Shown: in pieces, positions 11,084 through 64,000 of the stretch | Layout: every line of letters starts with the position of its first letter | Position numbering within the stretch: position 1 is the first letter of the stretch | NCBI RefSeq assembly: GCF_058153355.1 | Contig: NZ_CM177019.1 | Direction: 5' to 3' (one strand) | Length of the DNA stretch: 64,000 nt | The notes under the pieces: generated by a model | Told to the model about the DNA's origin: nothing | Database searches by the model: none | The model's input: only the letters and a program-made list of their open reading frames with translations | Program-made: the position numbers and the translations under genes

Positions 11084-11449
11084 GTCGACAGGGAGTCAGA
11101 CAACGAAGTGAACATCAGGATGATGACACTTCTGAAGGACACACCAGGAGGGTGTTTCAGGGAAAGGCTTCTGGATGAAGCGAAGAGGATGACGCAGGAC
11201 GCGTTAAAGGACACCTCCAGGATGGAGAATGAGAACCGGTCAGGATGATTCGGTGGGTCAGGAAGGCCAGGGACACTTCAGGATGAAGTATCACATCGGG
11301 GTGGTGTGAGCAGGAAGCAATAGTTCAGGATGAACTATTGGCCGCAAGGCCAGAGGAAAAGTTGTTAAGGATGAGCAGGGAGCAACAAAAGTAGCTGGAA
11401 TGCTGCGAAACGAACCGGGAGCACTGTGAATACAGTGCTCCCTTTTTTT
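11084..11449 (+). ncRNA. csrB: CsrB small RNA (CsrA-sequestering)
   Basis: Begins GTCGACAGGGAGTCAGACAACG; about 18-20 repeated CAGGA(U)G/AGGA motifs at roughly 15-25 nt intervals; ends in a GC hairpin GGGAGCACTGTGAATACAGTGCTCCC followed by T7 (11418-11449). Confidence 0.92.
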
Positions 11450-11494
11450 ATTCCTGCTATCCTTCGCGGCAGTTTTTCTTATTGAGGTTGCTTT

Positions 11495-13492: not shown

Positions 13493-14845
13493 ATGAGTTC
13501 TTTAAGTCAGGCTGCGAGCAGTGTGGAAAAACGCACGAATGCTCGTTACTGGATAGTGGTGATGTTGTTTATCGTCACATCCTTCAACTACGGCGACCGC
13601 GCTACGCTCTCTATCGCCGGTTCGGAAATGGCCAAAGATATCGGCCTTGATCCTGTGGGAATGGGCTATGTGTTCTCTGCTTTCTCATGGGCTTATGTTA
13701 TCGGGCAGATCCCTGGTGGCTGGTTGCTGGACCGTTTTGGTTCAAAACGCGTCTACTTCTGGTCGATCTTTATCTGGTCGATGTTTACCTTGCTGCAAGG
13801 CTTCGTCGATATCTTTAGTGGATTCGGCATTATCGTTGCCCTGTTTACGCTGCGCTTCCTGGTCGGGCTTGCTGAAGCGCCATCTTTCCCCGGTAACAGT
13901 CGCATTGTAGCGGCCTGGTTTCCGGCGCAGGAAAGGGGAACTGCAGTGTCTATTTTTAACTCCGCCCAATACTTCGCAACAGTGATCTTCGCGCCGATTA
14001 TGGGCTGGCTGACTCATGAAGTGGGTTGGTCACATGTCTTCTTCTTCATGGGCGGTCTGGGCATTGTCATCAGCTTTATCTGGTTGAAAGTCATCCATGA
14101 GCCAAATCAACATCCGGGCGTAAATCAGAAAGAGCTGGAGTACATCGCCGCGGGTGGTGCGCTGATCAATATGGATCAGCAAAACACCAAAGTTAAAGTA
14201 CCGTTCAGCGTGAAGTGGGGGCAGATCAAACAGCTGCTCGGGTCACGGATGATGATCGGCGTTTATATCGGTCAGTACTGTATCAACGCCCTGACTTACT
14301 TCTTTATTACCTGGTTCCCGGTTTATCTGGTGCAGGCACGCGGGATGTCGATTCTGAAAGCGGGCTTTGTGGCTTCCGTTCCGGCGGTTTGCGGTTTTAT
14401 CGGCGGTGTGCTGGGTGGGATTATTTCCGACTGGCTGATGCGCCGCACGGGATCGCTGAACATTGCGCGTAAAACACCGATCGTAATGGGCATGTTGCTG
14501 TCGATGGTGATGGTGTTCTGCAACTACGTCAACGTTGAGTGGATGATCATCGGCTTTATGGCGCTGGCCTTCTTCGGTAAGGGCATCGGGGCGCTGGGTT
14601 GGGCAGTAATGGCAGATACCGCGCCAAAAGAGATCAGCGGTCTTTCCGGTGGCCTGTTCAATATGTTTGGTAACATTTCCGGTATCGTCACGCCAATCGC
14701 AATTGGTTATATCGTTGGCACGACTGGCTCCTTTAATGGGGCGCTGATTTATGTTGGTGTTCATGCCCTAATCGCGGTACTGAGCTACCTGGTGCTGGTG
14801 GGCGATATCAAGCGTATCGAGCTGAAACCTGTTGCGGGGCAATAA
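13493..14845 (+). CDS. gudP: glucarate/galactarate transporter (MFS)
   Basis: 450-aa MFS ORF; first gene of gudPXD. Confidence 0.92.
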
Positions 14846-50604: not shown

Positions 50605-50868
50605 ATATTGCCGGATAAAATAAACGCCTCTGTCAGAAATGATGGGGGCGTTTTTATTTTGCGAGCCGCATTCCGGCATTTAAACGTGAATATAGCAGGG
50701 GAAATCAACAGTTATAGAATGGCGTCGGGTGCTTGAGGCTGTCTGGTGTTGAGCATTCGCGAGGTTCCAGATGGACAAAAGCCCCAGGCGATATATCTAT
50801 CAACCTGAGGCTTACGTTCGAACCCAAACAATTCGAATGTTAGTCTCTTCTTTGCAGGGAGGCAAGAC

Positions 50869-51021
50869 ATGCTGACAAAATATGCCCTTGTGGCAATCAT
50901 CGTACTGTGTTGTACAGTACTGGGATTCACGCTGATGGTAGGCGACTCGTTGTGTGAGTTGAGTATCAGAGAACGTGGTATGGAGTTTAAGGCAGTTCTC
51001 GCTTACGAACCGAAGAAGTAG
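50869..51021 (+). CDS. hokX: Hok/Gef-family small membrane toxin (50 aa)
   Basis: Not in the ORF track (under 60 aa). Translation [50 protein letters not shown] shows the Hok pattern (N-terminal TM helix, conserved LCE...R..G..E..A...AYE). Followed by GC hairpin CGCGGGGGTAAAACCCCGCG and a T-run. Locus name from my recollection of hokX/sokX between cysH and cas3 in K-12. Confidence 0.7.
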
Positions 51022-51259: not shown

Positions 51260-52911
51260 GTGACTTTCTTTGATTTCTGGGGAAAAACCCGACGTGGCGA
51301 GAAAGAGGGTGGCGACGATTATCACCTTCTTTGCTGGCATTCGCTGGATGTAGCCGCGATAGGCTATTTAATGGTCAAAAACAACTGTTTCGGGCTGGCT
51401 GACTATTTTCGTCAATTAGGTTTCGCTGACACGGATCAGGCAGCACAATTTTTCGCCTGGTTGTTGTGCTGGCACGATACTGGAAAATTTGCCCGCTCAT
51501 TTCAGCAACTTTACCTGCACCCACAACTCAAGGTTCCGGAAGGCGCAAGAAAGAATTACGAAAAGATCTCTCATTCAACGCTGGGTTACTGGTTGTGGCA
51601 TCATTATTTAATTGAATGTGAAGAGTTGCTTCCTTCATCTTCACTCTCTTTGCGCAAACTTAAACGGGTAATAGATATGTGGATGCCCGTGACGACCGGG
51701 CATCATGGTCGGCCTCCTGACCGTATCGATGAACTGGACAACTTTCTACCTGAAGACAAAGCTGCCGCACGAGATTTTCTCCTTGAAATCAAGGTACTGT
51801 TTCCGCTCATCGAGATCCCTACATTCTGGGATGATGACGAGGGCGTTGAACTTATAAAACATCTTTCCTGGTATATATCTGCAACCGTCGTACTCGCAGA
51901 CTGGACGGGATCGTCAACGCGGTTTTTTCCACGCGTCGCACATGTAATGGATATTAAAGATTACTGGCAGAATGCTTTAGCTCAGGCTCAAAACGCATTA
52001 ACCGTCTTTCCTCCAAAAGCAGAAACCGCACCTTTCACTGGAATTAACACGCTGTTTCCTTTTATTGAGAACCCAACACCGTTACAGCAAAAGGTGCTGG
52101 ATCTGGATATCAGCCAGCCAGGACCGCAGTTGTTTATTCTGGAAGATGTGACTGGCGCAGGTAAAACAGAAGCGGCGCTTATCTTGGCGCACAGGTTGAT
52201 GTCTGCGGGGAAAGCACAGGGTTTGTTTTTTGGCCTGCCAACAATGGCAACGGCCAATGCCATGTACGATAGGCTGGTAAAAACCTAGCTTGCTTTCTAT
52301 TCGCCACAATCCCGCCCCAGCCTGGTGCTGGCACACAGCGCTCGTTCGCTAATGGATCGCTTTAACGCATCGCTGTGGTCTGGTGATTTTGTGGGGTCAG
52401 AAGAACCGGATGAACAAGCGTTCAGTCAGGGATGTGCGGCCTGGTTTGCTGACAGTAACAAGAAGGCGTTGCTGGCTGAAATTGGCGTCGGCACGCTGGA
52501 TCAGGCGATGATGGCGGTGATGCCGTTCAAACATAATAATCTGCGGCTTCTGGGGCTGAGTAACAAAATCCTGCTAGCCGATGAGATCCACGCCTGTGAC
52601 GCTTATATGTCGTGCATTCTTGAAGGGCTGATCGAGCGGCAGGCGCGTGGCGGAAACAGCGTTATTTTGCTTTCTGCTACGTTGTCTCAACAGCAGCGTG
52701 ACAAACTCGTCGCCGCCTTTGCGCGTGGTGCAGAGGGCCAGCAAGAAGCTCCGTTGCTGGAAAAAGATGATTATCCCTGGCTGACGCATGTCACGAAATC
52801 CGATGTGCATTCGCACCGGGTAGCGACGCGCAAAGACGTTGAGCGCAGCGTGAGTGTGGGTTGGCTTCATAGCGAACAAGAGTGTATTGCGCGTATCGAA
52901 TCGGCGGTAAG
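51260..52911 (+). pseudogene. cas3: cas3 remnant (type I-E HD nuclease/helicase), in-frame TAG at 52286-52288 and 3' truncated at about codon 550
   Basis: Track ORFs 51260-52288 and 52325-52936 are in the same frame, separated by one amber codon; HD motif region (LLCWHSLDVAAIGY...HDTGKF) and Walker A (DVTGAGKTEA) present; reading frame runs directly into CRISPR repeat 1. Confidence 0.85.
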
Positions 52912-53062
52912 GTGTTCCCCGCGCCAGCGGGGATAAACCGTCGACAATGGATAAGTTGACTTCAGGTCTGGGGAGTTCCCCGCGCTAGCGGGAATAAACC
53001 GTGCAGTACGCCTGATGACAAACCAAGCATCGGGAGTTCCCCCGCGTCAGCGGGGGAACTCC
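52912..53062 (+). CRISPR. orphan type I-E CRISPR mini-array (3 repeats, 2 spacers)
   Basis: Repeat 1 52912-52940 GTGTTCCCCGCGCCAGCGGGGATAAACCG; spacer 52941-52972; repeat 2 52973-53001 (2 mismatches); spacer 53002-53033; degenerate terminal repeat from 53034. Spacers are 32 bp; repeat matches the E. coli I-E consensus. Confidence 0.9.
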
Positions 53063-53083: not shown

Positions 53084-54121
53084 TCATGACGCCTTCGCCA
53101 GTTCCTTCACTAGCGGTAGCATTATCCGCATAACGTCACGGCAGCGACGTTCTATTCTTCCAGGAAGCGCCTTATCAATATGCTGTTGATTATCAAGCCT
53201 TACATCATGCCAGCTATTTCCCGCCGGGAAGGCCGGTGTTTTTGCGCGTTGCTGATAACCATCCTTATTTCCAAGATTCCAGTTGGTCGCCTCCACCGAA
53301 AGTACCGCAATACCGGCTTTGTCGAAAACTTCTGCATCGTTACAACACCCAGTGCCTTTCGGATAGTTTTTATTCAAACCTGGATTTGTTGTCGCTGCAA
53401 TCCCATGATTATGCGCAATTGCCAGCGCTCGATCACGGGTTAATTTCCTGACAGCCTCTGGTGTATTTACACCACTATTAAAATACAATTTATCGCCAAC
53501 AATTAAGTTATCGAGATTAATCACCAGCAGCGTATTTTTCTTTTCAGTATCGCTCATGCGCTTGAGTAAATTCTCAGCGCCTAATTTCCCTTCTTCTTCT
53601 CCACTGGTTGCCACAAAACGAATACCATACTCGGTAGGCGTATTTTTCAGACGTTCAGCCAGTTCCAGCATGACACCTAAACCTGCGGCGTTATCATCCA
53701 TTCCTTGTAATGTCAGCCCGCCGAGATTGGCATCGGCGTCGGCATCGCTCAGTGGAGCGTACGTATCAAGATGCGCCATAATAATGATCTGCTGCGGCGC
53801 TTTGCCTTCATGAGCGGCAATCACCGTACTTCCCGTCACGTTGTGCCAGTTTTTGCGGTTATCGCGGGCGGTGTAAATATATCGGCTATTAAATGTCCGA
53901 ATATCACTGCGATAACCCATCTGTTGAAACTGTTGGCGAATATAATCGGCAGATAACATTTCTGCAGGAGTTCCGGTCATGCGTCCCGGAAAGAAAGTAG
54001 CAATATGTCGTGCCTGTGTATTAGCAAAATCACCAGGTTTAGGTGACGAGGCGTGTACGGGGAGAATAAAGCATACGCCGAGCGCCAGGGCAGCGGTACG
54101 GTGGCGCAATGCGGAAAACAT
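53084..54121 (-). CDS. iap: alkaline phosphatase isozyme conversion aminopeptidase
   Basis: 345-aa ORF with signal peptide, recognised as Iap (M28 peptidase). Confidence 0.92.
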   Translation of the reverse strand: MFSALRHRTAALALGVCFILPVHASSPKPGDFANTQARHIATFFPGRMTGTPAEMLSADYIRQQFQQMGYRSDIRTFNSRYIYTARDNRKNWHNVTGSTVIAAHEGKAPQQIIIMAHLDTYAPLSDADADANLGGLTLQGMDDNAAGLGVMLELAERLKNTPTEYGIRFVATSGEEEGKLGAENLLKRMSDTEKKNTLLVINLDNLIVGDKLYFNSGVNTPEAVRKLTRDRALAIAHNHGIAATTNPGLNKNYPKGTGCCNDAEVFDKAGIAVLSVEATNWNLGNKDGYQQRAKTPAFPAGNSWHDVRLDNQQHIDKALPGRIERRCRDVMRIMLPLVKELAKAS

Positions 54122-59401: not shown

Positions 59402-60427
59402 TTGAGTTTGATAATCTCACTTACCTCCACGGTAAACCGCAAGGTACCGGGCTGCTGAAAGCCAATCCGGAAGACTTTGTGGTGGTGGAAGATTTGGGCT
59501 TTGAGCCTGATGGTGAAGGTGAGCATATTCTGGTTAGAATCCTCAAAAACGGCTGTAATACCCGTTTTGTGGCGGATGCACTGGCGAAATTCCTGAAAAT
59601 TCATGCCCGTGAAGTCAGCTTCGCTGGGCAAAAAGACAAACATGCTGTTACGGAACAGTGGTTATGCGCTCGCGTGCCAGGCAAAGAGATGCCCGATCTC
59701 AGTGCTTTTCAACTGGAAGGTTGTCAGGTGCTGGAGTATGCGCGGCACAAGCGTAAGCTGCGTTTAGGGGCGCTGAAAGGTAACGCTTTTACCCTGGTAC
59801 TCCGCGAAGTGAGCAATCGTGATGACGTTGAACAACGTCTGATCGATATTTGCGTAAAAGGTGTACCGAACTACTTTGGTGCCCAACGTTTTGGTATTAG
59901 CGGCAGCAACTTGCAGGGTGCGCTGCGCTGGGCGCAAACCCATACTCCGGTGCGTGATCGCAATAAACGGAGTTTTTGGTTGTCGGCAGCCCGCAGTGCG
60001 TTGTTTAATCAGATTGTTGCTGAGCGCCTCAAAAAAGCAGACGTTAATCAAGTTGTTGACGGCGATGCGCTACAATTAGCCGGACGTGGTAGCTGGTTTG
60101 TTGCAACCACCGAAGAACTGGCGGAATTACAGCGTCGCGTCAACGATAAAGAGCTGATGATTACTGCTGCATTGCCGGGCAGTGGCGAATGGGGAACTCA
60201 GCGTGAAGCGCTGGCATTCGAACAAGCAGCTGTCGCCGAAGAAACTGAATTGCAAGCCTTACTGGTGCGCGAAAAAGTTGAAGCCGCGCGCAGAGCGATG
60301 CTGCTGTATCCGCAACAATTAAGCTGGAACTGGTGGGATGACGTCACCGTAGAAATCCGTTTCTGGCTTCCGGCAGGCAGTTTTGCGACCAGCGTTGTCA
60401 GGGAACTTATCAACACAACAGGTGATT

Positions 60428-60447
<20 letters not shown>
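59398..60447 (+). CDS. truD: tRNA pseudouridine(13) synthase
   Basis: 349-aa ORF recognised as TruD. Confidence 0.93.
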
Positions 60448-61809
<1,362 letters not shown>

Positions 61810-61948
61810 AACGTGAGGAAATACCTGGATTTTTCCTGGTTATTTTGCCGCAGGTCAGCGTATCGTGAACATCTTTTCCAGTGTTCAGTATGGTGCCTTG
61901 CACGGTAATTATGTCACTGGTTATTAACCAATTTTTCTTGGGGGATAA

Positions 61949-63088
61949 ATGAGCGCGGGAAGCCCAAAATTCACCGTTCGCCGCATTGCGGCTTTGTCAC
62001 TGGTTTCGCTATGGCTGGCAGGCTGTTCTGACACTTCAAATCCACCGGCACCGGTCAGCTCCGTTAATGGCAATGCGTCTGCAAACACCAATTCTGGTAT
62101 GTTGATTACGCCGCCGCCGAAAATGGGGACGACGTCTACAACGCAGCAACCGCAAATTCAGCCGGTACAGCAGCCACAAATTCAATCTGCACAACAACCG
62201 CAAATCCAGCCGGTGCAGCCAGTTGCTCAGCCGCCGGTACAGATGGAAAACGGACGCATCGTCTACAACCGTCAGTATGGGAACATTCCGAAAGGCAGTT
62301 ATAGCGGCAGTACATACACCGTGAAAAAAGGCGACACACTTTTCTATATCGCCTGGATTACTGGCAATGATTTCCGTGACCTTGCTCAGCGCAACAATAT
62401 TCAGGCACCATACGCGCTGAATGTAGGTCAGACCTTACAGGTGGGTAATGCTTCCGGTACGCCAATCACTGGTGGAAATGCCATTACCCAGGCCGATGCA
62501 GCAGAGCAAGGAGTTGTGATCAAGCCTGCACAAAATTCCACCGTTGCTGTTGCGTCGCAACCGACAATTACGTATTCTGAGTCTTCGGGTGAACAGAGTG
62601 CTAACAAAATGTTGCCGAACAACAAGCCAACTGGGACCACGGTCACAGCGCCTGTAACGGTACCAACAGCAAGCACAACCGAGCCGACTGTCAGCAGTAC
62701 ATCAACCAGTACGCCTATCTCCACCTGGCGCTGGCCGACTGAGGGCAAAGTGATCGAAACTTTTGGTGCTTCTGAGGGGGGCAACAAGGGGATTGATATC
62801 GCGGGCAGCAAAGGACAGGCAATTATCGCGACCGCAGATGGCCGCGTTGTTTATGCTGGTAACGCGCTGCGCGGCTACGGTAATCTGATTATCATCAAAC
62901 ATAATGATGATTACCTGAGTGCCTACGCCCATAACGACACAATGCTGGTCCGGGAACAACAAGAAGTGAAGGCGGGGCAAAAAATAGCGACTATGGGTAG
63001 CACCGGAACCAGTTCAACACGCTTGCATTTTGAAATTCGTTACAAGGGGAAATCCGTAAACCCGCTGCGCTATTTGCCGCAGCGATAA
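61949..63088 (+). CDS. nlpD: murein hydrolase activator lipoprotein NlpD (LysM + M23)
   Basis: 379-aa ORF; lipobox LAGC, Q/P-rich tandem repeats, LysM and degenerate M23 domain. Confidence 0.95.
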
Positions 63089-63150
63089 ATCGGCGGAACC
63101 AGGCTTTTGCTTGAATGTTCCGTCAAGGGATCACGGGTAGGAGCCACCTT

Positions 63151-64000
63151 ATGAGTCAGAATACGCTGAAAGTTCATGATTTAAATGAAGATGCGGAATT
63201 TGATGAGAACGGAGTTGAGGTTTTTGACGAAAAGGCCTTAGTAGAAGAGGAACCCAGTGATAACGATTTGGCCGAAGAGGAACTGTTATCGCAAGGGGCC
63301 ACACAGCGTGTGTTGGACGCGACTCAGCTTTACCTTGGTGAGATTGGTTATTCACCACTGTTAACGGCCGAAGAAGAAGTTTATTTTGCGCGTCGCGCAC
63401 TGCGAGGAGATGTTGCCTCCCGCCGCCGGATGATCGAGAGTAACTTACGTCTGGTGGTAAAAATTGCCCGCCGTTATGGCAATCGTGGTCTGGCTTTGCT
63501 GGATCTTATCGAAGAGGGCAACCTGGGGCTGATCCGCGCGGTAGAGAAGTTTGACCCGGAACGTGGTTTCCGCTTCTCAACATACGCAACCTGGTGGATT
63601 CGCCAGACGATCGAACGGGCGATTATGAACCAAACCCGTACTATTCGTTTGCCGATTCACATCGTAAAGGAGCTGAACGTTTACCTGCGAACCGCACGTG
63701 AGTTGTCCCATAAGCTGGACCACGAACCAAGTGCGGAAGAGATCGCAGAGCAGCTGGATAAGCCAGTTGATGACGTCAGCCGTATGCTTCGTCTTAACGA
63801 GCGCATTACCTCGGTAGACACCCCGCTGGGTGGAGATTCCGAAAAAGCGTTGCTGGACATCCTGGCCGATGAAAAAGAAAACGGCCCGGAAGATACCACG
63901 CAAGATGACGATATGAAACAAAGCATCGTCAAATGGCTGTTCGAACTGAACGCCAAACAGCGTGAAGTACTGGCACGTCGATTCGGTTTGCTGGGGTACG
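63151..64000 (+). CDS. rpoS: RNA polymerase sigma factor RpoS, 5' part (runs off the window end)
   Basis: Not in the ORF track (no stop inside the window). ATG at 63151 with GGAG upstream; translation [30 protein letters not shown]... matches RpoS; no premature stop within the 283 codons present. Confidence 0.93.

Follow-up and report, generated by a model that had tools for sequence, protein, structure and literature searches.

The nlpD gene occupies positions 61949-63088 on the plus strand of the window, which is the whole 64,000-nt stretch of DNA analysed, and encodes 379 aa when read from its ATG, as delimited by the ORF list, Pfam and NCBIfam. Among the ORFs of the window, surE (60383-61189) and pcm (61183-61809) precede it and rpoS follows, with its ATG at 63151; the gene order pcm-nlpD-rpoS agrees with the RefSeq annotation of matching loci. 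The initial annotation had called the gene nlpD, and this was upheld by the NCBIfam NlpD equivalog NF008123, which covered residues 4-379 with 677.9 bits against a cutoff of 311. A match annotated as nlpD was present in 5,421 of 5,426 complete E. coli genomes. The RefSeq/PGAP annotation begins nlpD homologues at a TTG (61994), 45 nt 3' of the ATG, which gives an NlpD of 364 instead of 379 aa and leaves a very short signal peptide; protein databases hold both the 364-aa and the 379-aa form. A minus-strand ORF of 67 aa (62136-62339), which overlaps the repeat described below, was without support and was regarded as spurious.

The nlpD of the window is a rare allele. Identity across the gene reached at least 99% in 17 of 5,421 complete genomes, most genomes being about 97.5% identical, and the exact NlpD of the window was found in 40 index blocks, compared with 82,111 for the K-12 protein.

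Several other features were observed elsewhere in the window. A 342-aa ORF (51260-52288) matched the Cas3 HD domain only, and a minimal CRISPR array followed it, with one exact copy of the E. coli repeat and one copy with two mismatches, 61 nt apart (52914-52940 and 52975-53001), and a further degenerate copy near 53035. The space between the preceding ORF of about 298 aa and a divergent 345-aa ORF (53084-54121) appears to leave no room for other cas genes, and the Cas3-like ORF together with the repeat region (52912-53062) looks like a remnant of a type I-E CRISPR-Cas system. A sok antitoxin RNA was matched by Rfam at 50727-50884 with 111.5 bits, above the gathering score of 59, pointing to a hok/sok-type toxin-antitoxin cassette beside the cas3 remnant. 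The small RNA CsrB was detected by Rfam at full length at 11093-11452 (377 bits).

The translation of nlpD begins with a lipoprotein signal ending in the lipobox LAGC (aa 23-26, 62015-62026), in which Cys26 is the lipid-anchor residue; A24, G25 and C26 were invariant in 46 homologues. Two folded domains follow, a LysM domain (aa 123-165, 62315-62443; Pfam PF01476, E = 2.6e-12) and a LytM/M23 domain (aa 279-372, 62783-63064; Pfam PF01551, E = 4.6e-33). Active M23 enzymes carry HxxxD and HxH motifs; NKGID and RLH stand in their place in NlpD, whose domain is thus a degenerate form. The LysM domain is the septal-targeting domain of NlpD, and the degenerate LytM domain is the amidase-activating one, through which NlpD activates the septal amidase AmiC (PMC5533458).

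Between Cys26 and LysM lies an N-terminal linker rich in Gln, Pro, Ser and Thr (aa 27-122, 62027-62314), a low-complexity segment that joins the lipid anchor to the first folded domain. Its 96 residues include 16 Q, 15 P, 11 S, 8 T and 8 N, and 76 of the 96 are polar or disorder-promoting. Both linkers of NlpD have been predicted to be disordered, by DISOPRED in the case of the N-terminal one, and Tsang et al. argue that, with linkers so long, anchoring in the outer membrane would not in itself be enough to hold NlpD away from peptidoglycan (PMC5533458). An AlphaFold2 model built from a 46-sequence alignment was uninformative on disorder, as its confidence was low throughout, including the M23 domain (mean pLDDT 35.7).

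The tandem array under study lies inside the linker of NlpD, as had been proposed for it, between the lipobox and LysM. Tandem Repeats Finder (TRF) detected one array at 62144-62219, with a period of 24, 3.2 copies, 69% matches and a score of 89. Two arrays in the window reached a score of at least 50, the nlpD array being one of them and the other consisting of two copies of a 15-nt unit (TCTGGTCGATCTTTA) at 13758-13787. The earlier claim of three 24-nt units encoding QQPQIQPV, QQPQIQSA and QQPQIQPV was borne out by TRF and by the reading frame: unit 1 (QQPQIQPV, CAGCAACCGCAAATTCAGCCGGTA) spans 62144-62167, unit 2 (QQPQIQSA, CAGCAGCCACAAATTCAATCTGCA) spans 62168-62191 and unit 3 (QQPQIQPV, CAACAACCGCAAATCCAGCCGGTG) spans 62192-62215, followed in the same frame by a degenerate unit 4 (QPVAQPPV, 62216-62239). 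The K-12 counterpart of unit 2 is QQPQIQAT. All units are on the plus strand, head-to-tail, codon-aligned and in frame with nlpD, and units 1-4 correspond to aa 66-97 of NlpD. The placement first given for the array, 62150-62225, captured this same array with limits 6-10 nt off the exact unit boundaries.

The peptide QQPQIQ occurred three times, and nowhere else, in a six-frame translation of the window. Self-similarity at a lag of 24 nt, scored over 48 nt, also reached its window-wide maximum here (33/48), whereas the maxima of 200 shuffled controls averaged 24.6 and never exceeded 29. The units had been described as near-identical, which is correct for the peptides but not for the DNA, where units 1 and 2 agree at 18 of 24 positions, units 1 and 3 at 21 and units 2 and 3 at 15. 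The longest exact run common to units 1 and 3 is an 11-nt identity, CAACCGCAAAT, present on the plus strand at 62147-62157 and 62195-62205; exact runs between adjacent units reach at most 8-9 nt.

Smaller repeats are embedded in the 3' part of the array. A 9-nt QPV micro-repeat is present in two copies on the plus strand at 62207-62224 (CAGCCGGTG CAGCCAGTT); in some backgrounds it is a perfect CAGCCAGTA x2, and it is found in one, two or three copies among strains. In common E. coli backgrounds, the 3' end of unit 4 and the next three bases (CAGCCGGTA+CAG) copy the junction between units 1 and 2, and this 12-nt identity is the junction of a 72-nt duplication found elsewhere. The window has GCCGCCGGTA at the 3' end of unit 4, so that its identity to the unit 1-unit 2 junction is shorter.

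The number of units was followed in a set of 5,426 complete E. coli genomes, 5,420 of which matched and were used for the length counts. The standard length was kept in about 98.6% of them, and a length variant of any kind was found in about 76 (about 1.4%). The span was exactly 201 nt in all of the best 60 matches to the window, and also in an evenly spaced sample of 60 rows, with the exception of one divergent allele. The variants comprised a 1-unit allele (-48 nt; about 62-64 genomes, 1.2%), a unique 5-unit allele (+48 nt; one genome, PapRG-04-4) and alleles with one QPV copy (-9 nt; seven genomes) or three QPV copies (+9 nt; four genomes). Neither 2-unit (-24 nt) nor 4-unit (+24 nt) alleles were found in any of the 5,426 complete genomes with synthetic queries, for which such alleles would have ranked at the top of the list. 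Thus, repeat number does vary between strains, as had been anticipated, with 1-, 3-, 5- and 7-unit alleles in existence, and the unit count is not identical in all E. coli genomes. With its in-frame 24-nt units and copy-number polymorphism, the array is a coding minisatellite (VNTR).

The total given for the 1-unit allele is partly indirect, as 17 genomes were listed by a junction query, two were confirmed separately and the remainder were deduced from alignment signatures. In this allele, 52 nt lie between the anchors AAAATGGGGACGACGTCTAC and CAGATGGAAAACGGACGC that bound the repeat segment. A 70-nt junction query (E <= 1e-16) listed 17 genomes, whereas the alignment signature of the allele, a partial coverage, was seen in 62-64 genomes in each of four other searches. 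The junction query undercounts because a K-12-type background mismatches it at query positions 22 and 46: in a local simulation, the 1-unit allele in a K-12-type SNP background (ACAGCG...CCAGTG) left no 28-nt megablast seed, and the same simulated allele reproduced every other search signature. The K-12-type 1-unit haplotype was indeed found in public assemblies, and E308 and HS-01 are complete E. coli genomes that carry it and are outside the 17 of the junction query. Other alleles were simulated for the approximately 46 partial-coverage genomes left unexplained (one unit with one or three QPV copies, a 72-nt deletion, and deletion of units 2+3 or 3+4) and were rejected, as their signatures did not fit the observed identity bands.

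Beyond the complete genomes, exact matches to the 363-aa product of the 1-unit allele (first met as P0009) were seen on at least 1,000 contigs, and 4,064 index blocks contained it, compared with 82,111 for the K-12 protein. The names attached to it in public assemblies are Shigella flexneri, S. dysenteriae, S. boydii and E. coli, so that an NlpD with one unit is tolerated and widespread in assemblies under Shigella and E. coli names. The allele occurs on at least three DNA haplotypes, and its 6-kb flanks differ by up to 43 SNPs, which fits recurrent deletion or recombination. Further alleles were rarer: a 360-aa protein with one unit and one QPV copy was found on seven contigs, a perfect 72-nt duplication of units 2-3-4 (5-unit, +72 nt; junction at CAGCCGGTACAG) in one assembly, and a 7-unit allele, also produced by a perfect 72-nt duplication, in one assembly of a lineage 91% identical to the window. 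In several of the genomes L020-L026, which carry a 1-unit nlpD and some of which are probably Shigella, the downstream rpoS was truncated or split, with products of 67, 307, 183, 298 and 29+277 aa instead of 330.

Alleles of the E. fergusonii type have three units. In Citrobacter, Salmonella, Enterobacter, Kosakonia and relatives, a single QxPQIQPV is followed by degenerate Q/P sequence, in a linker that measures 57-79 aa from the Cys to MEN, and the repeat region is missing from Yersinia NlpD (PMC2736372). This distribution across taxa indicates that Escherichia ancestrally had three units and that the allele with one unit is a derived deletion. Two related observations were made. The Citrobacter freundii-like protein P0047 (362 aa, representing a cluster of 284 members) lacks 13 residues between two QIQPV motifs when compared with P0030 and P0078 (375 and 381 aa), which makes Citrobacter a second genus with a length polymorphism of this repeat-mediated kind. 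In RM9387 (L001, NZ_CP009104.1), labelled E. coli, the 5' region of nlpD diverges strongly from that of other E. coli, and its linker (…STGIQQPQIQSV…) is one residue apart from that of proteins named E. fergusonii. The nlpD allele of the window shares the SA of its unit 2 with E. fergusonii-like alleles and may therefore be the older form or a recombinant.

The units were then compared among four lineages, namely the window, K-12, RM9387 (the E. fergusonii-like allele) and L007 (91% identical to the window). QQPQIQ was encoded by all 13 units, and the six variable sites in their 18-nt core were all synonymous third codon positions, while the last two residues of the unit varied (PV, SA, AT, SV or PI). 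As the hexapeptide was kept and the changes in its codons were synonymous, purifying selection has therefore acted on the peptide while the DNA copies drifted apart.

The location and composition of the repeat lead us to infer a spacer as its most likely function. The Gln/Pro repeats would form an extended, flexible spacer between the lipidated Cys26 and LysM, which would help the folded domains to reach septal peptidoglycan from the outer membrane. The hexapeptide and, in E. coli, the length of three copies are maintained by selection.

The junctions of the variant alleles bear on how the rare length changes are made. The hybrid unit of the 1-unit allele consists of the 5' part of unit 1 and the 3' part of unit 3, which therefore places a crossover inside the 11-nt CAACCGCAAAT identity. 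The hybrid unit of the 5-unit allele of PapRG-04-4 has the reciprocal composition (5' part of unit 3 and 3' part of unit 1), and both hybrids break within CAACCGCAAAT. Variant alleles in general break at identities of 9-12 nt, the 48- and 72-nt events taking place between non-adjacent units, and every allele differs in length by a whole number of codons (-48, +48, +72, +/-9 and -57 nt). In this reading, rare length alleles arise where non-adjacent units share a short exact identity, at which replication slips or recombination is unequal. The 11-nt identity of units 1 and 3 yields the loss (1 unit) or gain (5 units) of 48 nt, the 12-nt CAGCCGGTACAG the gain of 72 nt and the 9-nt QPV micro-repeat the changes of 9 nt in either direction. 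All variants remain in frame, with nlpD and the downstream rpoS promoter intact.

We therefore consider it highly probable that the array is an old, imperfect, in-frame minisatellite in the tether of NlpD, with a role as a spacer and with rare length alleles made at microhomologies.

The perfect conservation of QQPQIQ exceeds what a pure spacer needs, and the hexapeptide may also engage in a specific interaction. QQPQIQ could accordingly be read as a short linear motif that binds peptidoglycan, a component of the divisome or a partner in the outer membrane; its copy number (1, 3, 5 or 7) would then tune the recruitment or regulation of NlpD, and the segment would do more than serve as a passive spacer. 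In addition to the invariance of the hexapeptide in 13 units of four lineages with synonymous changes only, this reading draws on the conservation of PQIQPV and QPVxxQPVQ in Citrobacter, Salmonella and Enterobacter, and on the weak enrichment at midcell of a fusion with the N-terminal linker alone (PMC5533458). However, Yersinia NlpD does without the repeat region (PMC2736372), the other genera manage with a single copy, and alleles with one unit are frequent in assemblies named Shigella and account for about 1% of the complete E. coli genomes, so that a binding motif of this kind is unlikely. The stronger proposal that QQPQIQ is a selected linear motif whose copy number works as an adaptive dial on NlpD, with three copies held by selection in E. 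coli, appears more doubtful still. If it were true, the recurrent, Shigella-enriched 1-unit alleles and the rare 5- and 7-unit alleles would alter the reach or restraint of NlpD at septal peptidoglycan, and cell separation or envelope properties would shift in particular lineages.

The minisatellite with a spacer role and rare length changes was also weighed against a hypervariable site, in which slippage would change the unit number often, perhaps with relevance to the nearby rpoS promoter. Transcription of the main rpoS mRNA begins within nlpD, 567 nt 5' of the rpoS start codon (PMC10948607). Placed by this published distance, and with its hexamers (17-nt spacing) read by eye, the inferred promoter lies on the plus strand at 62550-62584, with a -35 TTGCGT (62550-62555), a -10 TATTCT (62573-62578) and a start near 62584; a sigma-70 consensus scan of 61800-63160 called no promoter. 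Unit 3 ends upstream of this promoter, about 334 nt short of the inferred -35 and about 369 nt short of the transcription start. The initial annotation had put the repeat just upstream of the rpoS promoter, which is right as to the side and loose as to the distance.

Frequent change is favoured by the existence of length variants and by the spread of the 1-unit allele over at least three haplotypes and over flanks up to 43 SNPs apart, a pattern compatible with recurrence. Against it, about 98.6% of the 5,420 genomes have the standard length and none has two or four units, adjacent units are identical at only 15-18 of 24 positions and share no exact run longer than 9 nt, and each variant differs by a multiple of 3 nt. 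The repeat is not part of the 567-nt rpoS leader, its end being about 334 nt upstream of the -35. Six E. coli strains with the 1-unit allele, taken from the junction search, had rpoS annotated intact and at full length. The description of the array as prone to slippage was not sustained in the usual sense of the term, as the exact identity between adjacent units is at most 8-9 nt; the changes observed were +/-48 and +72 nt between non-adjacent units or +/-9 nt in the QPV micro-repeat. A hypervariable site is thus largely refuted by the population counts and very improbable, and nothing suggests an effect of the repeat on rpoS. The array could finally be read as a nucleic-acid element, acting as a structure in the bicistronic nlpD-rpoS mRNA or as DNA sites to which proteins bind. 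This reading is motivated solely by the position of the array in an operon with an internal promoter and is slightly less credible still, since the RNA fold of 62120-62260 was no better than that of shuffled sequences (z = +0.93; 164 of 200 shuffles at least as good), the Rfam search of the window matched no family at the repeat, and the changes cluster at synonymous third positions, so that the peptide and not the DNA is conserved.

The repeat itself is an ordinary feature already known since 1994, when Ichikawa et al. (J Bacteriol 176:1630) reportedly named the 'unusual amino acid repeat sequences' of NlpD in their title; Lange & Hengge-Aronis (1994) is a further reference for the NlpD of E. 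coli K-12. It has also been described in PMC2736372. A literature search for polymorphism of the nlpD repeat or for the Shigella deletion returned no relevant report. The analysis adds, on a small scale, the allele census, with three units nearly fixed, no 2- or 4-unit alleles and a 48-nt deletion common in Shigella-named assemblies, together with the logic of the junctions and the purifying selection on the hexapeptide. The array could be used as a minor typing marker, and its alleles as natural linker-length variants in studies of the coupling between NlpD activation and outer-membrane constriction.

Compared with the NlpD of E. coli K-12, the window shares the surE-pcm-nlpD-rpoS context and three QQPQIQ units followed by QPVAQxPVQ, and differs in unit 2 (SA instead of AT), in the residues just before the repeat (TT instead of TA) and in unit 4 (QPP instead of QQP).

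Phase-variable simple-sequence contingency loci are found in Haemophilus, Neisseria and Campylobacter, typically with units of 1-9 nt. The nlpD array resembles them in being a tandem DNA repeat in the gene of a surface or envelope protein, with a copy number that differs by strain. However, contingency loci have many perfect short units, whereas nlpD has three imperfect units of 24 nt with a longest exact run of 11 nt; they vary frequently among close relatives, whereas about 1.4% of 5,420 genomes vary here; and they switch by frameshift or by a change in promoter spacing, whereas the alleles of nlpD change rarely and in frame, with the -35 about 334 nt away and no on/off switching or change in promoter spacing. 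The mutability of the array is therefore low, and its assignment to the contingency loci is not supported.

A comparison can also be made with disordered tethers that span the periplasm, for example the linker at the N terminus of the outer-membrane lipoprotein LpoB or the Pro-rich spacer in TonB. They share no sequence homology with NlpD, and the likeness is one of composition and position: in each case, a low-complexity, Pro-rich segment leads from a membrane anchor to a functional domain and presumably sets its reach in the periplasm.
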